Below, piece after piece: positions 45,331 through 58,368 of a DNA stretch of 64,000 nucleotides. The notes under the pieces are model-generated. The model searched no databases. It was not told where the DNA came from and was given only the letters and a program-made list of their open reading frames with translations. Location of the stretch: assembly GCA_031261985.1 (NCBI GenBank), contig JAISIR010000010.1, forward strand, positions 26,049 through 90,048, written 5' to 3'. The DNA is from Clostridiales bacterium. Lineage in GTDB: Bacteria > Bacillota > Clostridia > Monoglobales > WRBX01. The translations under genes and the position numbers were made by a program. Position 1 is the stretch's first letter, and each line of letters begins with the position of its first letter.

Positions 45331-46029
45331 ATGAAACTAACTAAAAAGCAAAAAACTTATGCAGAAGTGTATGACCAAAAACAGACGTTTGACCCTGCAG
45401 AAGCTTTGGATTATGCTACAAAAACAGCTAAAGCAAAATTTGACGAGACAATTGAAATCCATATTAAATTAGGCGTCGATTCTCGTCATGCCGACCAACA
45501 AGTTCGTGGTGCTGTTGTGCTTCCAAACGGGACGGGTAAAGTGCAAAAAATTCTTGTATTTGCTAAGGGTGAAAAAGCTGACGCTGCCACAGCTGCTGGT
45601 GCAGATTTTGTTGGTGCAGAAGAGCTTGTGCCTAAAATTCAGAATGATGGTTGGTTTGATTTCGATATCGTTGTTGCTACCCCAGATATGATGGGCGTGG
45701 TTGGACGTTTAGGTAAAGTTTTAGGTCCAAAAGGCTTGATGCCTAACCCAAAAAGTGGTACTGTAACACCTGATGTAGCCAAAGCTATCGAAGAGATAAA
45801 GCTTGGTAAAATCGAGTATCGTCTTGATAAGAACAACATTATCCACTGCCCTATCGGCAAAGCATCATTTGGTAAAGAGAAATTATTGGATAACTTTAAT
45901 ACTTTAATGAACGCTATCGTGCGTGCGAAGCCTGCTTCTAGCAAGGGAACTTACCTAAAAAGCGTAACCTTATGTGCTACGATGGGTCCTGGTGTTAAGG
46001 TTAATCCTTCTAAAATCGACGTTGCGTAA
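45331..46029 (+). CDS. rplA: 50S ribosomal protein L1
   Basis: [34 protein letters not shown] is the canonical L1 sequence. Confidence 0.97.
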
Positions 46030-46219
46030 ATTGATATTGAGCAAAAAGTAATTGTCGGCATTTGCCTAAATTGCATACAATATAATGGGTAAATTTTGGT
46101 ATGAAAGATTGTTATTTTAGTTGCTATTTATAAAAGATTGATTATGTAAAGTTGTTTTGGTATTTTGCATCTTTGGTTTTAAAGTGCATACTCTTCAATT
46201 CAACTTTACATTTCTTTCT

Positions 46220-46265
46220 GCATTTGCTGCCTTAGCTCAGTCGGTAGAGCACTTCCTTGGTAAGG
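46220..46265 (+). pseudogene. orphan 5'-half copy of tRNA-Thr(GGU), with 6 nt of upstream flank
   Basis: 46 nt (gcatttGCTGCCTTAGCTCAGTCGGTAGAGCACTTCCTTGGTAAGG) are identical to 46365-46410. The match ends in the 3' side of the anticodon stem. Confidence 0.85.
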
Positions 46266-46370: not shown

Positions 46371-46446
<76 letters not shown>

Positions 46447-46634: not shown

Positions 46635-48092
46635 CTAACTCTCTTTCGACTCATTTAATATTTTTTCTATATCGGATTTTACTCCACCAGATAAATCTCT
46701 TGAATCACCAATTTTGTGACATTTAAAACCATTAAGGTCAAAAGGAGGTTTATCGTTTTCTTCTTTAGGTTGGTAATAAAACACCATTTTCCCTAAACCC
46801 ACATTTTTTAATGCGTAGCCGACCTCAACCATAACATTATGACGAGCTCCAGTTAAATCTGCAACAAAAATGTCGCAATCTGATATTTCTCTATACATAA
46901 CACTTCTAATATCAAATGTTCCGCCTTCTTCCGTTCCCATATCTATGGGGACTAGGTTTAATTCGTTCGCTATTTCTTTCATTTGGTTTATTCTGTGATT
47001 TGCTTGTGATAATTCTGGTTCGCTTGTAGGATACCAACGGGCAATGAACATTTTCTTAGGGGCGTTTTCATAAATCTTATCATATATACTAATGATATCA
47101 TCAGTCTTTAGATTCGTTGCCTCCGAAATATGATTTTTTGCTATCCATTTAATAAAGTGTGAATATTTTTCCCAATTCACAATTTTATAATAAACCAATG
47201 ACTCAATTATGTAAACATTATTACTCTTAGCTACTATTCCGTTTTCACGAATTACATTTTCGATATCAACCAGTGTTTCTTTTATAGTTTGAACGGCGTT
47301 CTCTGGGGCAAGTTTCTCTATATCTAATAAGCGTCTAAATAAATTTAGGAAGAAAGAATACCTTTTTTCATAAATGAATTCTTTAATTTTAGGGAATACA
47401 TCAAAATTCACCTTTCTATCCCCTATTAGAATATCACGAGTGAATTTATAGCACAATCCAAAAGAAGGGTCTTCAAGAAGATTATCATCGGAAAAGGTGT
47501 TAAACCCTTCTATAATTGTTTTAATATTAAGTTCTAATTCAAGTGGAATTTGTTTAGAATTAATATTATGGAATATAGCTCTTGAATGTCTTTCAAGTTC
47601 AGTATTTGTAGGAAACAATATAATACAAAACGGTATGAGCATATCTGGGTTTGCATAATCGGCTGCACTTAATCTATGATTTCCATCTATTCGTAAGATT
47701 TTTACTTTATCTTCTTCGAAATCAAGTTGTGCAATTTTTAACGGTTTGTTATCGCCGACTAATTTGTTATTTTGTTTATTAAAATTTACCGTTATGTCTC
47801 CAATATTAGTTGCCCTTGACCCTTTTTCGCGAGAATTAACAGCTTCCAAAAGCATTTCGAAAGGTTGAATATTTTCGTCTAAGTTAAAAGACATTGATAA
47901 AACCACTTCGGGGAAATACTTATAATCACCTTTTGTTAAAAAGTTGATCATTTCATTCGCATGTTCTCCCAATAAATCACGTTGAATATCGGGATTCACT
48001 TCAGATATTTCTGCCAATTCTTTAATGGTTGCTAAACCACGAAGGCAAAGATAATTATCCATAATTGTTGATAAAATGCCATTCATTTTCAT
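46635..48092 (-). CDS. fusion protein: N-terminal DGQHR/ParB-like (DndB-family-like) domain + C-terminal nucleoside 2-deoxyribosyltransferase-like (NDT/DNPH1/TIR-like) domain
   Basis: 485 aa. The N-terminal motifs are NPDIQRDL...YFPEVVLSM...LRIDGNHRLSA. The C-terminal motif is CDIFVADLTGARHNVMVEVGYAL..GLGKMVF. RBS AGGAGG; the start lies 15 nt after the hsdR stop. Family assignments are from memory. Confidence 0.6.
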   Translation of the reverse strand: MKMNGILSTIMDNYLCLRGLATIKELAEISEVNPDIQRDLLGEHANEMINFLTKGDYKYFPEVVLSMSFNLDENIQPFEMLLEAVNSREKGSRATNIGDITVNFNKQNNKLVGDNKPLKIAQLDFEEDKVKILRIDGNHRLSAADYANPDMLIPFCIILFPTNTELERHSRAIFHNINSKQIPLELELNIKTIIEGFNTFSDDNLLEDPSFGLCYKFTRDILIGDRKVNFDVFPKIKEFIYEKRYSFFLNLFRRLLDIEKLAPENAVQTIKETLVDIENVIRENGIVAKSNNVYIIESLVYYKIVNWEKYSHFIKWIAKNHISEATNLKTDDIISIYDKIYENAPKKMFIARWYPTSEPELSQANHRINQMKEIANELNLVPIDMGTEEGGTFDIRSVMYREISDCDIFVADLTGARHNVMVEVGYALKNVGLGKMVFYYQPKEENDKPPFDLNGFKCHKIGDSRDLSGGVKSDIEKILNESKES

Positions 48093-48107: not shown

Positions 48108-51100
48108 CTACACCAGCCCGAAGAACTTCTCAAAGAATATCGTTAGTTTTTCAATAACTGTTGTTTTCTTAACAGTTCTGTTATTCTCGCCAAATAGCGA
48201 TGTAGGCGGAAGGATTTTATCAATGCCTGTGCCTGTTGTTTTAAGCTCGCCTGCGCGGAATGAATTATCAATAAACTTGTGTGTTTCTTCTTTTTTTAGA
48301 TTTTCGAATTCAATAATTGCTCCTAAATCCTGTTCCTTTTGCTCTTTTACAAATTCCACCCATTCTGCCTCAACTTTTGTATTAATATTCATACGCTCAA
48401 TGAAATTTGTAATAAGCTCTTTTTTGCTACGAAGCTCTAAGCTTGAGCCGATAGCCTTGTCGATCGTTTCTAAAATTTCTTTATCCGTGCAATGACTATC
48501 GTGATATTTAGTAACAAGCATTAGAATATAGTCAATGTTTATATTAACCTGCTTGATAAGCTCCATTTCAAAGACAATATCGTCGTTTATTATCTCTTTT
48601 TTGGCATCAATATTCTTTCTGTATTTCTGATAAAGGTCGATGTATTTACCGTGATAATCTTGGAATTCACGTTCAGTTAAAATTTCATTGTCCTTGTAAT
48701 CATCGAACGACACGAGAATATTTCTAAGACGCAAAATAGCAGAATATAGCTCGATAAATTCTTTTTCACTTTCCTCGCCTATAATCTCGCCAAAATTTTT
48801 AAGGTCTTCTATAAGCTCCGAATATTTATCATAATAATGCTTAAAAGGTTTTAAAAGCACAATTCCTGCCGCATCTTTATCGCCAAATAGACTAATCGCC
48901 TCATTGGTTTCTTGTTCTAAATTACGAAAGCATACGATATTACCAAAGCGTTTGACGCTATTTAATATTCTATTGGTTCGTGAAAACGCTTGAAGTAGTT
49001 TGTGATATTTTAAGTTTTTATCAACCCAAATGGTGTTTAGCGTCGTTGCATCAAATCCCGTCAAAAACATATCTACAACAATCAAAAGGTCAATCTGACG
49101 GTTTTTCACTCGCATAGACAAATCTTTATAATAGTTTTGGAATTTATCGCTTGAAGTGTCGTAATTTGTATTGAACATTGCGTTATAATCAGCTATTGCA
49201 CCTTCTAGAAAATCACGGCTAACTTTGTCTAAACCTTCGGTCGTAAATTCTTCATCTGGCTCTTCTTCGTTGGCTGAGTAGCTAAATATTGTCGCAATTT
49301 TTAGGTTATGCTCGTGGTTTTTGAACTCGTTATAATACCTTTTCGCCATATCAATCGAACTTACAGCAAAGATAGAGTTAAATCCGTTGACGGTCTTTTC
49401 CTCTTTAATCTCATCAACTTCTTTTTTCTTATCTTCTGCCAGTTTCTCAATATTTGTTATAACTCTGTGTTGGAAATGCGAAAGATTTTGGTTGCGATAA
49501 GTTTTATCGTTGAAATTTTTTATAATGTACTCCACGGTATTGCTTATAAGCTGGTTATCGCTTAATACCGCTGCGGTGTCTATCGCACTCACTTTTTTAT
49601 CAATAATTCCGTCTTTTATTCTAAATCGCTCTATGTAATCAACTTTAAAGGGCAGAACATTGCCGTCGTTTATTGCGTTTACGATTGTGTAGGTGTGCAG
49701 CTTATCTCCGAAGGCTTGCTCGGTTGTTCTAAGCATTGGGTTGCCTGATGTGCTGCTATTGGGTGCAAAAATAGGAGTGCCTGTAAAACCGAATATGTGA
49801 TAATTCTTAAAATTCTTTGTTATTCTAAGGTGCATATCGCCAAATTGCGAGCGATGGCATTCATCGAATATCAAAACAATATGCTTCTTAAAAACCTCAT
49901 GTCCTTTGTTTCGTCCAATAAAAACATCAAGCTTTTGAATGGTTGTAACTATAATTCTGGTATCATCTGATAATTGTTTTTCAAGAACTTTTGTAGAAGT
50001 GTTGCCATTGGCTGCTCCTTTGCAAAAACGGTCGTATTCTTTCATTGTTTGGTAATCAAGGTCTTTTCTATCAACGACAAATAGCACCTTATCAATATAA
50101 TCAAGCCCTGTTGCAAGTTGAGCCGTCTTGAATGATGTCAGAGTTTTGCCCGAGCCTGTTGTATGCCAAATATAACCGCCAGCTTCGATGCCGCCCATTT
50201 TTTTATAATTGTTAGAACACTCAATGCGGTTTATAATCTTCTCAGTTGCGGCGATTTGATACGGACGCATAACCAAAAGTAGCTGCTCGCTTGTGAAAAC
50301 GCAATACTTCGTTAAAATATTTAGTATTGTGTGTTTAGCGAAAAAAGTTTTGGTAAAATCGACTAAATCGGTTATTAGTTTATTCTCGCCATCTGCCCAA
50401 TAGCTTGTGAATTCAAACGAATTGCTTGTTTTCTTGGAGCGTGACGCTCCACCCGTTTTGACTTCATAAACATGAGAAAATCTTGTTGTGTTGCTATAAT
50501 ATTTCGTGTGAGTTCCGTTGGATATAACGAAAATCTGAGCATACTCATACAGACCACAACCTGCCCAAAAGCTATCGCGCTGGTATCTATCAATTTGATT
50601 AAATGCTTCTTGAAGCGGCACGCCACGCTTTTTCAACTCAATATGCACAAGCGGCAAACCGTTGACGAGTATTGTTACATCATAACGATTATCATAAGTT
50701 CCAGAGTTTTCGTATTGGTTGATAATCTGCAAGTGGTTGTTATGTATGTTTTTCTTGTCTATTATAGAAATGTTTTTTGTTATTCCATTATCAAGGCGAA
50801 AAGCATATCTATAATCTTCTTGGACTTTGCGTGTTTTCTCAACAATTCCCTCATTTTTATTGATAAGGTATTCATTGCAAAAACGCTGCCACTCTCTATC
50901 ATAGAAAGTATAATCGTTTAACCGTTCAATTTGCTTCCGCAAGTTTGCAAGCAAATCAGCCTCGGAGGAAAGAGCAACAAAATCATAGCCTTGTATTCTA
51001 AGACGCTCAATAAAATCTTTTTCCAGCTCCGCCTCGCTTTGATAAGCCCCCGATTGCTTTTCAGTCGGGACATATTTTGCAACGACGGTGGACTCGTTTT

Positions 51101-51128
51101 GCTCGGCTATCATTTTGTAATCTTTCAC
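48108..51128 (-). CDS. hsdR: type I restriction enzyme R subunit, EcoR124I-like (type IC)
   Basis: 1006 aa. NRYDVTILVNGLPLVHIELKKRGV (nuclease/HSDR_N region), GSGKT, FDECHRSQ (DEAH box) and FSRTNR are present. The N-terminal region closely resembles my recollection of EcoR124I HsdR. The GTG start overlaps the hsdS stop; the exact start is uncertain. Confidence 0.92.
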   Translation of the reverse strand: MKDYKMIAEQNESTVVAKYVPTEKQSGAYQSEAELEKDFIERLRIQGYDFVALSSEADLLANLRKQIERLNDYTFYDREWQRFCNEYLINKNEGIVEKTRKVQEDYRYAFRLDNGITKNISIIDKKNIHNNHLQIINQYENSGTYDNRYDVTILVNGLPLVHIELKKRGVPLQEAFNQIDRYQRDSFWAGCGLYEYAQIFVISNGTHTKYYSNTTRFSHVYEVKTGGASRSKKTSNSFEFTSYWADGENKLITDLVDFTKTFFAKHTILNILTKYCVFTSEQLLLVMRPYQIAATEKIINRIECSNNYKKMGGIEAGGYIWHTTGSGKTLTSFKTAQLATGLDYIDKVLFVVDRKDLDYQTMKEYDRFCKGAANGNTSTKVLEKQLSDDTRIIVTTIQKLDVFIGRNKGHEVFKKHIVLIFDECHRSQFGDMHLRITKNFKNYHIFGFTGTPIFAPNSSTSGNPMLRTTEQAFGDKLHTYTIVNAINDGNVLPFKVDYIERFRIKDGIIDKKVSAIDTAAVLSDNQLISNTVEYIIKNFNDKTYRNQNLSHFQHRVITNIEKLAEDKKKEVDEIKEEKTVNGFNSIFAVSSIDMAKRYYNEFKNHEHNLKIATIFSYSANEEEPDEEFTTEGLDKVSRDFLEGAIADYNAMFNTNYDTSSDKFQNYYKDLSMRVKNRQIDLLIVVDMFLTGFDATTLNTIWVDKNLKYHKLLQAFSRTNRILNSVKRFGNIVCFRNLEQETNEAISLFGDKDAAGIVLLKPFKHYYDKYSELIEDLKNFGEIIGEESEKEFIELYSAILRLRNILVSFDDYKDNEILTEREFQDYHGKYIDLYQKYRKNIDAKKEIINDDIVFEMELIKQVNINIDYILMLVTKYHDSHCTDKEILETIDKAIGSSLELRSKKELITNFIERMNINTKVEAEWVEFVKEQKEQDLGAIIEFENLKKEETHKFIDNSFRAGELKTTGTGIDKILPPTSLFGENNRTVKKTTVIEKLTIFFEKFFGLV

Positions 51129-51726
51129 GCTGTTTTCAGCTCCTTAAAATCTAATAATTTGTTCCGATAGTATTCATATTGTTTTCGTCTTGCCTCAATT
51201 TCAGCAGGAAGCCCTTGGGTTATGTCAGTTGTCAGTGCGTCGAATTTATCGAGAATTTCGACAATACGCTCTTGGGTTGCAAGAGGAGGGATGGGTATTT
51301 GAAGTTCTCTAATAAACGACAAATTGGCTATAGCTAGTTTTCCGCCGCTTGTTAGTGCAATAAATTGAGGGAATAGAATTTGACAAGCATAAAACAAATA
51401 ATACTTATCCAATACTTTTTCGTTTTTCGGATATAATGCGGCGACATTTTGATTTGTTGCTGCTTCAAAGTTTAAAAAAGCTATTTTCCCAATTGTTGCT
51501 CCTACCATTGCTATTAGTGTTGTACCGATAGGAAGTATTTTCGCCGATGAATTACTTAGACCGCTTTCAGTAATATATTCAGTGACTTCATCTACATACT
51601 TTTGATTCTTGCAGACGGTTGAACCAAGCCATTTCACAGTGCCATTCTCCCAATATTCTGATACACCTCGTTTAGGAGTACCTCCAGCGCTTACGCAACA
51701 TACTTCCCCGAGGCTACTCCATAATA

Positions 51727-51734
51727 CCCCCCCC
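51727..51734 (-). repeat. G8 homopolymer (C8 on the plus strand) at the hsdS frameshift point
   Basis: Read directly: ataataCCCCCCCCgttttc. Confidence 0.95.
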
Positions 51735-51795
51735 GTTTTCCAGTTTTTGGAAATTCAAGAGAGAATTACGATAGTATTCATATTGTTTTTTCCGC

Positions 51796-51831
51796 GCTGT
51801 AAGCTCTGCTGTAAGCTCTGCTGTAAGCTCT
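51796..51831 (-). repeat. 3 perfect tandem copies of a 12-bp unit in the hsdS central conserved region (encodes TAEL repeats)
   Basis: gctgtaagctct x3 on the plus strand; it translates to [14 protein letters not shown]. Confidence 0.95.
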
Positions 51832-52374
51832 GTAAAATTGTCAAGTATCTTGACAATTTCTCTCTGAACGGCAAGGGGAGGCAGGGGGATTTTGATGTTT
51901 TCCCATTTTCCTTTACTTAACCCAAATCTAGTTAGACCTGTTGCGTTCATAAGAATTTGTTTTTGAAGCACATTGCTTTCAAACAAATAAGATAAGTAGA
52001 ATGGTGATAATTGTTCCTTGTTTTTAATTCTAACTCTCATTATATGATAACTATAAACTGCATTATCTATTGTTTGAGTAGCAACGGCAGAATGCCCAAT
52101 ATCGTCGATAGTTTCGGAAGTTGGTGTAATAAATACATCACCCTCTTCAATTGAGCAATTCTCAATTTTATTATCGCTCGCTGAAACCTCCATCGCAAGC
52201 GTTTCTGGCGTAATGTACATATTGCGATATACATCCATATAATTGAGAAGTTTAACCATTTTTTGGTCGGGAACTATCTTTTTGTCAACACCTGTATTTG
52301 CAATTTCGCAAACATCCACCAACTTAACATACTCCACCCCATTCGGGCAAAGATTCTGTATTAGCTCCGTTAGT

Positions 52375-53403
52375 TTATTCATCGTTCTCACCACCGTTCT
52401 TGCTTTTCAGTTGTTTAATAACCTTATCAAAGTCAGAAGTGATTTTCTGTGTCCTATTATATTCGGCATATTCCAAAAAAGCTTTTTCATCGGCTTGCTT
52501 TCTACTTATACGCCCATTGTCTTTGAGTATTTTATATTTGCGGAACTCTAAAAACTCGTTTATGCTAGTAGCGAACTCATCCATAGTGAAGGTATTTTCT
52601 CGTTCTATCAAATCTTCAATATAATCAAAATACCCAGAAACTGCACGTTCTAACTGACGGATTTGTTTTTCTTCCAAGTAGTTTTTGGCGATTTTTACAT
52701 CTTGTTTTAATATTCTGCCCTTCGGAGAATTTTCCCAAGTCTTAAGCCCCATATGCTCTTTATTTCTATCTGCATTCGCATATACAATTTCAGCACCCGT
52801 TTGCCCTGTTATAGCAAAATGGAATTTATTTTGAACGGTTGCATAAAACTTATCTGTAACCTCTGCATTTCTGTCATAGTCAATCGAACATTCTGCGAAT
52901 ATATCGGTTATTTGTTGCCATATACGCCGTTCACTTGCACGGATAGAGCGGACACGCTCTAAAAGCTCACGGAAGTAGTCTTTGCCGAAAAGCGTCTTGC
53001 CTTGTTTTAGCCTCTCGTCATCCATAGCAAAGCCTTTGGTCATATATTCTTTCAAAATGCCAGTTGCCCAAATTCTAAAATTTGTCGCACGCCGTGAATT
53101 GACACGATAGCCAACGGAAATAATAGCATCGAGATTGTAAAATTTAGTTCCGTGCGTCTGAGTCTTACCTACGATTGCACCGTGTTGAGTGGTTGTTTCC
53201 AAAATGGAAATAACCACTTTTTCTTGCAATTCGCCTTCCTCGAAAATGTTTTTTAAATGCTTGCTTATAGCAGGCGTTTGCACATCGAAAAGTTCAGCCA
53301 TTGCTCCTTGTGTGAGCCAAACGGTTTCATCTTTTACAACGGCGTTGATTGATACATCGCCCTCAGCTGAATTGTAAATTATAAATTGAAAATTATTTTC
53401 CAT
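52375..53403 (-). CDS. rhuM: RhuM-family protein embedded in the R-M operon
   Basis: The N-terminus [53 protein letters not shown] is typical of RhuM-family proteins (from memory). It overlaps the hsdS start. Confidence 0.8.
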
Positions 53404-53448: not shown

Positions 53449-55008
53449 TCACTCTATTTCCGCAATAATCTTGTCAATTTCAGCCCTCAAAACTTCCTCG
53501 CGAGCAACGATTTCGGCTATCTCTTTGTTAAGTTCTACAATATCTATAACTTCCCGAGTGTCCTTTTTTTCAACATAGCTTGACACGCTTAGCTTATAAT
53601 CTTTTTTGGCAATATCTTCGTTTTTAACGAGTTTTGCTATATATTCTACATCTTCACGGTTAGAAAAATAATTCACGATGTCGTTTATATCTTCTGGTCT
53701 AAGTTGATTAGAATTAGCAACTTTTTTACGCTTGTTGCTTGCGTCAATAAATAGCGTGCTGTTGTCTTTTTTATTCTTTTTCATAACCATAATACAAGTT
53801 TCTATACCTGTGCCGTAGAAAAGATTGTCAGGAAGCTGAATAACGCAATCAACATAGTTATTATCAATTAGATACTTACGGATTTTCTGCTCAGCTCCGC
53901 CACGGTAGAATATACCTGGGAAGCAAACAATTGCAGCAGTTCCGCTCGTTGCAAGCCAAGAAAGAGAGTGCATAATAAACGCCATATCAGCTTTTGATTT
54001 TGGTGCTAGTATTCCAGCAGGTGAAAAACGCTTGTCGTTTATCAAAATAGGGTTGCCGTCGCCCGCCCATTTGATAGAGTATGGAGGATTAGAAACAATC
54101 GCCTCGAAAGGCTCGTCATCCCAATGCTTAGGGTCGGTTAGAGTATCGCCGTGAGCAATGCTAAATTTATCATAATCAATATCGTGCAAGAACATATTAA
54201 TGCGACATAGGTTATAAGTTGTTATGTTTATCTCTTGCCCATAAAACCCTTGATGCACATTGTCTTTGCCTAAAATTTTAGCGAATTTAAGGAGTAGCGA
54301 ACCCGAACCACAAGCAGGGTCGTAGACTTTATTAACTTCCGTCTTGCCAACTAATGTAAGTTTCGTTAAAAGCTCGCTAACCTCTTGCGGAGTAAAGAAC
54401 TCGCCGCCACTTTTGCCAGCGTTAGAAGCATACATACTCATAAGATACTCATACGCATCGCCGAAAGCGTCAATTGTATTATCTTGAAAATCTCTTAGCC
54501 TTATGTTACCGATGCCGTCTAAAAGTTTAACAAGTCTTGCATTTCTTTGACTAACCGTTCCGCCAAGTTTGTTGGAGTTAGTGTCGACATCGTCAAACAA
54601 GCCTTTTAAGTTTAATTCGCTTTCGTTGCCTTGTGCTGAGCTTTCAATATTCTTAAAAATTTTTTCAAGAGTTTCGTTAAGGTTATCGTCGTTTTTAGCA
54701 ACTTTTAAGATGTTCTCAAAAAGCTCGCTAGGAAGGATGAAATACCCTTTTGTTTTAACTATTTCTTTTCGTGCAAATTTTGCTTGAGTATCAGGCATTT
54801 TAGCGTAATCAAAAGAGGTATTGCCAGTGGCGTGTTCGCCTTTATTTATGTATGAGGTTAGGTTTTCAGAGATATATCTATAAAATAATATACCAAGCAC
54901 ATATTGCTTAAAATCCCAACCGTCAACGCTGCCACGCAAATCGTCAGCTATCGCCCAAATCGCACGATGAAGTTCTTGCCTTTCTTGCACTTTCTTATTA
55001 TCTATCAT
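53449..55008 (-). CDS. hsdM: type I restriction-modification system methyltransferase subunit (N6-adenine)
   Basis: The HsdM N-terminal domain ([36 protein letters not shown]), SAM motif [12 protein letters not shown] and catalytic NPPY (SNPPYS) are present. The ATG at 55008 sits 6 nt after AAGGAGG. Confidence 0.95.
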
Positions 55009-55060
55009 TGCCATCCTCCTTGAAAATCCAGCAATATTCCTCATTGTTTCAACTATGAAC

Positions 55061-55089
55061 ATTGTATCACAAGATTATTATTTAGTCAA
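55061..55089 (-). promoter_or_regulatory. sigma-A promoter for the hsdM-rhuM-hsdS-hsdR-(DGQHR fusion) operon
   Basis: On the minus strand: TTGACT, a 17-nt spacer, then TGaTACAAT (extended -10). Confidence 0.6.
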
Positions 55090-55228: not shown

Positions 55229-55254
55229 AGAATTATTGAATGGAGGAATTATTA

Positions 55255-58200
55255 ATGGTAAAAAAGGTAATAAGTCTTATTTTAACTGGAATAGTATTAT
55301 TTTCATCTATACCAGTTTCACCTGTCTTGGCAAATGCAAATGAAACGGACCCAATTATTCTTTATGTAGCAAATGATGGGACAGAAGAGTTTAGAACTTT
55401 TCAAGAAGTTGTAGCAAAAGTAAAAGAAATTAATACAACAAACAAGACAAGACCTATTATCGTAAATTTTAGAGCAGGTGAATATTTTTTAGATGATACC
55501 ATAAAAATGGATGCTAGTCATTCGGGCTACGAGAATGCACCTGTTACTTATCAAGCGTATAATAACGAAAAAGTAACTTTTGTGGGCGGTAAGGTAATAA
55601 GTAAAAACAACATCACTAAAGTTACAAATGAAAATGTTTTAAACAGAATTATAGACCAGAATGCTCGTACAAAAATAATGGTTATTGATTATTCTGATTT
55701 TGACGTGGAATTTCAGCCACTTATGGATAATCTAAAAAAGTCACGAGGTGCACCTGCTGTGTACATCGGGGAAACCGCCCTATCTCCTGCGAGGTATCCA
55801 AATAAAACTAGCGATAATCCTTATGTTAAGACATTAAGTGATGATTACACTGGCTATGAATATGAAGGGGATTTAGTAAAGAGCAAGATTACTTTTGTAG
55901 ACCGCGAAAACAGGGCCGACCTATGGAGCGATGGGGCACTCGACAACGCATACGTTCATGGATTCCTTCATTATTCTTGGATGGACGATATGGCTAGCGT
56001 TAAAAGTTTTGATAAAGAAACAAAAGAGTTTGATATTGGCTGGAACGAGTTTGGAGCATATAGTGACAATAACTTTTACTTCCTAAATATTTTAGATGAA
56101 ATAGATATGCCAGGCGAGAGCTATAACGACCTAGACAACAAAAAGATTTATTTTTATCCGACCGATGATTATCAGGCTTCTGATGTTTATGTATCGACTT
56201 TAGAAAAGACCATGGTTGATGCGAGTAATTTAAACTATGTTACCTTTAAAGGTTTAGACTTTAAGTATACCCGTGGCATGTTTTTTAGCTTGGGTGGCAA
56301 CAATTTAACCATAGATAATTGCGAGGTAGCGCATAATTCTACCGGTGCAATAAGTATTAGTGGCACAAACAATACAGTTAAAAATTCTCATGTTTACGAT
56401 AATGCTAACGGCGGAATTAGTATGTATGGCGGGGATAGAAATAGCTCATGGGACGCGAATAATTTAATAGAAAATAACAAAATCCACGACAACGCAAATA
56501 GGCAAAGCATGGCATATGTTGCTGCCGTCGGGGCGTATAGCATGGGGCTAGTTATACGAAACAACGAGATTTATAACAGCCCTCATCTGTTGATTAGCAT
56601 AGGCTCTGTTAACGATATCACGATAGAAAACAACGAAATTCACCACGGAGTTTCGGATGGCTCTGATATGGGTGCAATTTATTACGAAGGTGACCTTGCA
56701 ATTTTGGGGCTTGAAATTCGTTATAATTATTTTCATCATAATGGTAATAATTATGGCGGTGATTATGGTCAGCAGGCGATATTTGCAGACAATGGAACTA
56801 TCACACCGCATGTGCATCATAATATCTTTTATAATGGCCTTGATAATGGAAACACCGCAATCAAGGCTAATGGTGCACAGTTTGGGCTTGTAGAAAACAA
56901 TATATTCGCTGGGTATAAATGGCCTACGTATTTTCAAAGTTGGGGCAACAGCCAATATGTTCAAACTAATTGGTTCCTGCCACTCCATTCCGTGCCTACA
57001 TACAACGGCATTGGCACATACAATAAATTAACAACAGGAAGAGATAATCTCTTTAGAGAAGAATTTTTATCACGATATTCAGTTGATTCTTTTTACGCAA
57101 ACGCATTTTATGATTATTTTAACGCAGGACATCGTGAGGCAATGTTAGAAATAGAGTCTAATAGTATAGAGGAATGGTGGAAGGAATCGGAACTTGCCGC
57201 CGACCTTCTTGTGGTTGTCGACCAAGTGCTTACGCCAGAAGAAGCAGCTAGAGTTCGCACTATTCACCCAAAACAAGTAGACCAGGCAAACATGACAAAA
57301 CTCGGTATGGCAATGCTAACCAAGTATGGAGCAGAAAACGCGCAAAAGTTGTACGAAGATGCTGTTAAGGAATTGGAAGCAAGCGTATCAGCAAACCTTA
57401 AGGTATACGCTGAGGAACACGCCCCACAACGCTCGAATATATTCAAAGGCAATGTGTTAGTAGGCGCAAACATTCATTCTAATGGCGCAGCTGTTAATGA
57501 TAATGGAACAGAAACATACACATATCATGACAAAACTGGAATTTTAGATTCGGGCAACTCGATTTTTATTGAGTATGCAAATGACTTTACTTTGACCGAT
57601 GAAGGTTTAGAAGAAGTGCGAAAAACGAATCCAGCGTTTGAAAATATATTAATGGAGAATATAGGATATAAAGAACCTAAAACTGAAGAACCATCATCGC
57701 CGAGTCAAGGTGGCGGTGGCGGCGGCGGTGGTGGCAGCAAGCCAATTACCCCAAGCCCAAGCCCTGTGCCATCTCCAATACCCTCACCATTACCAAGCCC
57801 TAAGCCTCCTAAACCATTAATGTTTACTGATATTTCTGCTAATCAATGGTTCTTTAATAGTGTAAATTACGTATATCAAAACGGATTAATGGTGGGCATG
57901 ACCGATACTGAATTTGAGCCTAATAGGAAAGCCACGCGTGCCATGATTGCTAATATACTTTGGCGATTAGAGAGTGATGACGATGTTGCGTTAGATAGCC
58001 TATTTAAAGATGTAGATAAAAATGCTTGGCATGCCAAAGGTATTGCTTGGGCTAAAAATAGTGGTTTAATTACTGGCTATGAAGATGGCGAGTTCCGCCC
58101 GAATGGAGAGATTACTCGTCAAGAGTTAGCGACAATTATTGCTAGATACTTAAAATTCAAGGGCGAACAAAATAATATAAACGGTGCAGCTGAGTTCTTG

Positions 58201-58368
58201 GATATTGATGGAATAGCACCCTGGGCTAAAGAGAGTTGCTTGTTCTTGAAAAGTAATGGGGTTATGCAGGGGCGTGAAGGGAATATCTTCGACCCAAAAG
58301 CCCAAACAACTCGCGCTGAAACCGCACAATTGCTAACAAATTTGAATAAACTTTTGCCGCGCAATTAG
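55255..58368 (+). CDS. SLH-anchored right-handed beta-helix protein, paralog of 13318-16134
   Basis: The signal peptide starts at MVKKVISL (ATG 55255 after GGAGGA). It shares ARYPNK, YFLNILDEIDMPGESY and HHNIF..G..AIKA.GAQFGLVE.N blocks with the 13318 gene product. A G9 + PSPSP linker and three SLH domains follow. Confidence 0.9.
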   Translation: MVKKVISLILTGIVLFSSIPVSPVLANANETDPIILYVANDGTEEFRTFQEVVAKVKEINTTNKTRPIIVNFRAGEYFLDDTIKMDASHSGYENAPVTYQAYNNEKVTFVGGKVISKNNITKVTNENVLNRIIDQNARTKIMVIDYSDFDVEFQPLMDNLKKSRGAPAVYIGETALSPARYPNKTSDNPYVKTLSDDYTGYEYEGDLVKSKITFVDRENRADLWSDGALDNAYVHGFLHYSWMDDMASVKSFDKETKEFDIGWNEFGAYSDNNFYFLNILDEIDMPGESYNDLDNKKIYFYPTDDYQASDVYVSTLEKTMVDASNLNYVTFKGLDFKYTRGMFFSLGGNNLTIDNCEVAHNSTGAISISGTNNTVKNSHVYDNANGGISMYGGDRNSSWDANNLIENNKIHDNANRQSMAYVAAVGAYSMGLVIRNNEIYNSPHLLISIGSVNDITIENNEIHHGVSDGSDMGAIYYEGDLAILGLEIRYNYFHHNGNNYGGDYGQQAIFADNGTITPHVHHNIFYNGLDNGNTAIKANGAQFGLVENNIFAGYKWPTYFQSWGNSQYVQTNWFLPLHSVPTYNGIGTYNKLTTGRDNLFREEFLSRYSVDSFYANAFYDYFNAGHREAMLEIESNSIEEWWKESELAADLLVVVDQVLTPEEAARVRTIHPKQVDQANMTKLGMAMLTKYGAENAQKLYEDAVKELEASVSANLKVYAEEHAPQRSNIFKGNVLVGANIHSNGAAVNDNGTETYTYHDKTGILDSGNSIFIEYANDFTLTDEGLEEVRKTNPAFENILMENIGYKEPKTEEPSSPSQGGGGGGGGGSKPITPSPSPVPSPIPSPLPSPKPPKPLMFTDISANQWFFNSVNYVYQNGLMVGMTDTEFEPNRKATRAMIANILWRLESDDDVALDSLFKDVDKNAWHAKGIAWAKNSGLITGYEDGEFRPNGEITRQELATIIARYLKFKGEQNNINGAAEFLDIDGIAPWAKESCLFLKSNGVMQGREGNIFDPKAQTTRAETAQLLTNLNKLLPRN

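Follow-up and report, generated by a model that had tools for sequence, protein, structure and literature searches.

Why is the specificity gene of an otherwise intact type I restriction-modification system divided into two open reading frames (ORFs) exactly at a run of eight guanines? The question is raised by a locus of an uncultured Clostridiales bacterium, in which two ORFs are both annotated as 'restriction endonuclease subunit S'. The answer could be a gene that was broken recently and for good, an error of assembly, an allele that yields both halves of the subunit as separate products, or a switch of DNA specificity that is driven by slippage of the homopolymer. We analyzed a window of 64 kb (64,000 nucleotides; all coordinates refer to it) from a 165,185-bp contig of a metagenome-assembled genome (MAG), with the proteins of the locus deposited as MDR0930792-97; the sequence is a consensus.

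The hsdS gene lies on the minus strand, and accordingly, the plus strand reads C8 at 51727-51734 where the gene itself carries G8. The original prediction had placed a G8 tract at 51727-51734; the position and the length hold, whereas the strand has to be corrected, the G8 being on the minus strand. The 5' part of the gene, in frame A (51714..52382, minus strand), comprises, upon translation, the N-terminal helix, the first target-recognition domain (TRD1), the complete central conserved helix and an 11-residue tail. It runs from an ATG at 52382 through the tract to a TAG at 51716-51714, 11 nt past the tract, and in the G8 state encodes 222 amino acids (Pfam Methylase_S, 1.4e-18). The 3' part, in frame B (51125..51754, minus strand), is preceded by a stop at 51757-51755, is open from 51754 to 51128, where the product ends in ...KELKTA, and is closed by a stop at 51127-51125. 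Its 209 open codons encode TRD2 and the distal conserved helix (Methylase_S, 6.9e-26), and the listed 170-aa ORF, with a GTG at 51637, covers just the last part of it. The homopolymer (51727..51734, minus strand) specifies three glycines of the linker that joins the central helix to TRD2, and it is the point at which the frame shifts.

The tract unit of 1 nt is not a multiple of 3, and it is located inside hsdS between the portion that encodes TRD1 with the central region and the portion that encodes TRD2. The consequences of a change in tract length were followed in an explicit series. With G7 or G10, the two frames fuse into a full HsdS with two TRDs, of 418 or 419 aa, respectively; G5, G8 and G11 yield a truncated HsdS with the tail ..IME*, and G6, G9 and G12 a truncated HsdS with a different tail. 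A change of a single unit in the tract interconverts the full-length and the truncated ORFs, and there is no further lesion in the gene. Translation of both frames together with this series bears out what had been read from the letters originally, namely, that hsdS is split exactly at the G8 tract, that frame B is open from 51754 and leads through TRD2 into the 170-aa ORF, and that G7 or G10 would fuse the frames.

The split gene belongs to a minus-strand operon, hsdM-rhuM-hsdS-hsdR, that is located between 48108 and 55062 and consists of overlapping or closely spaced ORFs (Pfam and PADLOC). The type I N6-adenine methyltransferase subunit is encoded by hsdM (53449..55062, minus strand), a 537-aa ORF (519 aa in the NCBI version) with the Pfam domains N_6 Mtase (9.8e-116) and HsdM_N. 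The restriction and translocase subunit, of 1006 aa, is encoded by hsdR (48108..51128, minus strand; Pfam HSDR_N, SWI2_SNF2/ResIII, T1R_D3-like and EcoR124_C), the GTG start of which overlaps the TGA stop of hsdS (GTGA), with AAGGAG 11 nt upstream. Between hsdM and hsdS, there is a rhuM-family gene (52375..53403, minus strand; Pfam Virulence_RhuM, 2.2e-101) that overlaps the start of hsdS by 8 nt and corresponds to the PADLOC candidate defence family PDC-S05 (3.6e-157).

Among solved structures, the EcoR124 proteins are the closest relatives of all three subunits. HsdM matches EcoR124II M over its full length (E=3.6e-194), compared to only 3e-16 for EcoKI M; HsdR matches EcoR124 HsdR (about 7e-244; Pfam EcoR124_C, 1.3e-60); and residues 166-416 of the fused HsdS match EcoR124II HsdS (E=3.5e-55). 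Furthermore, in HsdS the central conserved region contains a 12-bp tandem repeat that encodes TAEL (51796..51832, minus strand; 3.1 copies, period 12 and 100% matches in Tandem Repeats Finder), which has the same length as the repeat of EcoR124II and aligns with it without gaps. Such tetra-amino-acid repeats (TAEL, LEAT, SEAL, TSEL) are typical of type IC HsdS and set the spacer length of the target (PMC10030836, PMC6789123). On the strength of HsdM, HsdR and the TAEL repeat, the system is, at the sequence level, an EcoR124-like member of type IC, in line with the family assignment that was originally proposed. The number of TAEL copies varies among relatives, with 4 copies in one locus (L083) and 3 in two others (L086 and L088), and the repeat is a second, in-frame and potentially unstable element within hsdS.

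The G7-fused HsdS aligns over 99% of its length to homologues of 400-430 aa, the best of which shows 59% identity. In an alignment of 15 sequences, the glycines encoded by the tract map to a short linker, variable in length and bounded by the conserved end of the central region (...KQYEYYRxxLLxF) and the W/LxxLG start of TRD2, and the translation of frame B retains 23 of the 23 invariant columns of the second HsdS half. When the 222-aa product is modelled with AlphaFold (mean pLDDT 89.1), a globular TRD is followed by a single long helix (residues 170-211) and by disorder at 213-222; a Foldseek search with this model retrieves HsdS subunits and the half-size Esub1 structure. In the model, G8 begins at codon 217, 5 residues past the predicted end of the central helix, and glycines 217-219 are in the disordered tail. 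Because the predicted helix ends at residue 211, ahead of the glycines of the tail, the G8 product is, as modelled, a neat half of HsdS that retains the whole coiled-coil helix.

A frame that is intact in this manner might also be used without any change in tract length. Under this alternative, one allele would supply both products, through transcriptional slippage, +1 ribosomal frameshifting or separate translation of a TRD2 half that pairs with the TRD1 half. The NCBI annotation includes a 209-aa TRD2 protein (MDR0930793.1) that starts at the ATT codon at 51754, and MacWilliams and Bickle, in 1996, reportedly found that co-expressed halves of a type IC HsdS can reconstitute the wild-type specificity. 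However, frame B contains no ATG, GTG or TTG ahead of the GTG at 51637, and a start at that codon would delete about 40 residues of TRD2; there is no Shine-Dalgarno-like sequence upstream of the ATT at 51754, and NCBI's start has no visible ribosome-binding site; and no frameshift-stimulating element was identified. Given that frame B has no canonical start before 51637, separate synthesis of the TRD2 half is very unlikely, and an independent start of this half was rejected; the one-allele explanation as a whole we regard as highly improbable.

The switch that the frame arithmetic suggests has a direct precedent, established by experiment, in the NgoAV system of Neisseria gonorrhoeae. There, the removal of a single G joins hsdS1 to hsdS2, and the recognised sequence becomes GCAN7STCA instead of GCAN8TGC (PMC9577141). 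The NgoAV tract is G7, and sequenced gonococcal strains carry 6 to 9 G (PMC9577141). The likeness between the two loci extends to several features. In both, the G homopolymer is located at the 3' end of the part that encodes TRD1 and the central region, the natural truncation is about half of the full size (208 of 410 aa in NgoAV, 222 of 418 here), the loss of one G fuses both ORFs, and the downstream ORF has no independent function. Both systems also belong to type IC and have a tetra-amino-acid repeat upstream of the tract (LEAT in NgoAV, TAEL here). In contrast, the host of NgoAV is a proteobacterial pathogen and the present host an uncultured Clostridiales bacterium; the tract is G7 there and G8 here; rhuM is inserted between hsdM and hsdS only here; and the TRDs in the window are unrelated to any characterised specificity.

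In a broader context, a survey of REBASE (Atack et al. 2019) counted repeat tracts in 7.9% of hsdS genes; examples include Salmonella G[12] and Pseudomonas aeruginosa GCAA[n]. The position of these tracts is 'invariably' between the two TRDs, and the general outcome that the survey proposed is a switch between full-length HsdS and dimerising halves (PMC7383803). The present hsdS resembles these genes in the location of the tract between the TRDs and in the predicted toggle between a full-length and a dimerising truncated HsdS; it differs in that its tract is below the 9-nt cut-off that the survey applied to mononucleotide runs and in that it is annotated as two ORFs. Because the survey covered full-length annotated genes only, and by its own caveat is an underestimate (PMC7383803), it could miss an hsdS that is annotated as two ORFs; the word 'Clostrid' is absent from its main text (PMC7383803). 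The length of the tract, G8, is below the 9-nt criterion of this survey and above both the functional G7 of NgoAV and a G7 example cited there. As of the 2019 survey, NgoAV was the sole hsdS with experimentally shown repeat-tract switching (PMC7383803), and the original prediction, according to which slippage in hsdS is established in several pathogens, overstated the case in this respect.

The expectation that truncated HsdS of the IC family recognise symmetric targets, also part of the original prediction, is in line with the literature: EcoR124I and EcoDXXI HsdS that are truncated after the central region recognise palindromic sequences (cited in PMC10030836), and the unfused NgoAV recognises GCAN8TGC (PMC9577141). 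The EcoR124I and EcoDXXI truncations differ from the present one in being laboratory-made, by deletion or transposon insertion, with no natural reversible tract. A type IC-like truncated HsdS of Staphylococcus xylosus is inactive when expressed alone (PMC10030836), so a half-subunit is not necessarily active. Clonal populations in which type I methyltransferase specificity is switched, as proposed here, also arise from inverton or shufflon hsdS loci such as SpnD39III of Streptococcus pneumoniae, which, however, rely on recombinase-driven inversion between several hsdS copies instead of a homopolymer. Inversion of this type was rejected for the present locus, where we found no second hsdS copy and no significant inverted repeat, and where a scan of nearby ORFs revealed no recombinase.

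A homopolymer at the junction of two frames could still be a random run. In the window, however, G8 is the sole G/C homopolymer of at least 7 nt; one G6 and one C6 come next. With bases drawn independently at 39% G+C, about 0.23 G/C runs of at least 8 nt would be expected in 64 kb. Furthermore, in the 17 long ORFs of the window, GGG is the rarest glycine codon (11.5%), and GGG-GGG is used at 0 of 89 Gly-Gly pairs. The hsdS linkers of relatives point in the same direction. An in-frame 8-nt G/C run is present in the same HsdS linker of three distant, unrelated relatives, namely, two Prevotellaceae MAGs, in which C8 encodes TPP (L037, 4569-4576; L079, 4674-4681), and a Campylobacter upsaliensis genome (L082), in which AAC-G8-T encodes NGGG. 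In both Prevotellaceae loci, a simulated change of one base truncates HsdS directly after the central region. Across the linkers of the 80 fetched loci, 2 such runs were seen, compared to about 0.065 expected from the background density of 9 runs in 663 kb over the same loci (Poisson P of about 0.002).

The tract of C. upsaliensis has the same immediate context, AAC-G8-T, as that in the window, and we considered a shared, horizontally moving 'tract module', which was rejected given that the flanks are only 52% identical. At this level of identity in the DNA around the tract, the two tracts appear to have arisen separately. Together, the outlier status of the tract in the window, its use of a rare codon, the intact state of the system and the recurrence in the linker argue against a random run.

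Closer relatives give a different picture. A query with TRD2 only recovered six relatives at 76-78% identity from metagenome contigs, and 0 of these 6 closest TRD2 relatives have a tract in the linker; their TAEL repeats do differ in copy number (4 versus 3). A search of 5.8 billion proteins returned nothing above 59% identity to the fused HsdS, so no fused allele of this hsdS is on record there. When GTDB species genomes were scanned with the fused HsdS as protein query, the best identity among the matches listed was 49%. A search of JGI metagenome contigs for the exact DNA pattern across the tract, with a gap of 4-14 nt, gave 0 matches, and this holds for the source contig as well. The literature that was searched makes no mention of the run and protein accessions. 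Across all of these searches, the allele turned up a second time only in one contig of a Logan assembly, described below.

In the course of these comparisons, we made two additional observations on hsdS relatives. Some distant ones have in-frame C8 runs inside the conserved regions (L033, 3632-3639 and 4205-4212; L042, 4501-4508), where an IPIPPL motif is encoded as ATC CCC ATC CCC CCC CTT, a potential slippage site. In addition, many of the best HsdS matches (P0002, P0003, P0005, P0009, P0010 and others) are 590-640 aa long, not about 410 aa, which is consistent with the 'extended three-TRD' HsdS of the REBASE survey.

The allele state itself has to be considered with the origin of the data in mind. 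The only state seen is G8, and it is seen in both available assemblies: the Logan assembly of run SRR14710920 includes a 2210-bp contig that is 100% identical to the window, G8 included, although this contig and the MAG may derive from the same reads. If the homopolymer had been miscounted, the true gene could have G7, or the population could be mixed, and the locus would then be a plain intact hsdS. G/C homopolymers are classic sites of indel errors, the source is the consensus of a MAG, and both assemblies may rest on one set of reads. Nevertheless, G8 is obtained with two different assemblers, whose sequences are 100% identical over 2.2 kb; the ORFs in the window reach 1519 aa, at a coding density of 89.5% and in the presence of 39 A/T runs of at least 7 nt; and there is no other obvious split gene in the window, the single adjacent pair that was checked with Pfam being secE and nusG. 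Because the window bears no systematic signs of indels, a systematic homopolymer error is unlikely, and a mixed population behind the consensus is possible. Overall, we consider an artefact of assembly or sequencing to be distinctly unlikely as the source of the split.

The same uniformity of the observed state bears on a more serious alternative, under which a single slippage event left a young pseudogene or a stable half-HsdS system, with no biologically meaningful rate of switching. Several observations are in accord with such a fixed frameshift. G8 alone is seen in both assemblies, its length is below the survey threshold for high-rate variation (PMC7383803), the close TRD2 relatives lack the tract, and, among gonococci, 47% of the NgoAV-like loci are predicted to be inactive (PMC9577141). 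However, hsdM, hsdR and the downstream frame with its 209 codons have remained intact; the disfavoured codon pair would not be expected without selection for the tract; and equivalent tracts recur in the same linker of unrelated lineages. Because frame B retains all invariant residues over its 209 codons and both HsdM and HsdR are complete, the coding sequences argue for a shift that is recent or reversible, as opposed to old decay. A fixed frameshift thus appears rather unlikely to us, and it retains more credence than either the miscounted homopolymer or the supply of both products by one allele.

On balance, we consider it somewhat probable that the G8 tract is a functional specificity switch of the NgoAV type. 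Under this model, translation in the G8 state would stop 11 nt past the tract and yield a 222-aa product that consists of TRD1 and the complete central helix. Reasoning from NgoAV and from the truncated EcoR124I and EcoDXXI, we expect these halves to pair through their helices and, with HsdM2, to recognise a symmetric bipartite target. Replication slippage that removes one G (G7) or adds two (G10) would restore the 418/419-aa HsdS, with an asymmetric bipartite target, and G9 would specify a second truncated form with a different tail. We infer, by extension from the anatomy and the precedents, a fluctuating tract length in the population, activity of both forms and the targets described above. 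Inasmuch as the switching itself is reached in this way, the interpretation is partly supported, yet it is the best one available and is strongly backed by the anatomy of the locus, the recurrence of the tract and the precedent.

A more elaborate version of the model, which we find unlikely in its entirety, is a controller with multiple states. G7 and G10 would specify the asymmetric target, and G8 and G9 half-HsdS with different tails and a palindromic target. Ribosomes in the truncated states would terminate about 590 nt before they reach the GTGA overlap between hsdS and hsdR, such that restriction would be dampened while the methylation pattern is being rewritten, and the adjacent TAEL repeat would add variants of the spacer length. 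The state of the tract might affect the translation of HsdR through this overlap; a search for terminator-like sites between the stop of frame A and hsdR gave none on the minus strand. If this controller exists, it would be a self-protecting, combinatorial epigenetic switch that is driven by a simple sequence repeat in a non-pathogenic anaerobic Firmicute.

The simpler, NgoAV-type switch would already have consequences for the host. If the tract varies, one locus would endow a Clostridiales population with two alternative genome-wide methylation patterns and with two alternative barriers to phages and plasmids. Switching of this type would then reach beyond host-adapted proteobacterial pathogens to an uncultured Firmicute, and surveys of annotated full-length hsdS would miss alleles that happen to be in their truncated form. 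The pair of ORFs annotated as 'restriction endonuclease subunit S' is best treated as one gene with a predicted hypermutable tract. Because the mechanism of the switch is already well described, the gain is incremental; NgoAV-type switching is not prominently documented in this lineage, and the locus is probably a fresh example of a known switch.

The operon is part of a small defence island that is flanked by rplA (45331-46029) on one side and by a gene for an S-layer-homology protein (55240-58368) on the other side. Directly downstream of hsdR, there is a 485-aa ORF (46635-48092, minus strand) with a TIR-like C-terminal part, which matches a PADLOC TIR effector (5e-8) and, below the cut-off, Pfam Nuc_deoxyrib_tr (1.2e-4); this ORF may represent a further defence gene of the island. 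A tRNA-Thr(GGT) gene (46371-46446, plus strand) has a partial second copy at 46215-46265 on the same strand, in which its leader and 5' half are repeated over 51 nt at 96% identity, 145 bp upstream of the gene. This truncated tRNA duplicate could be the scar of an integration event where the island ends.
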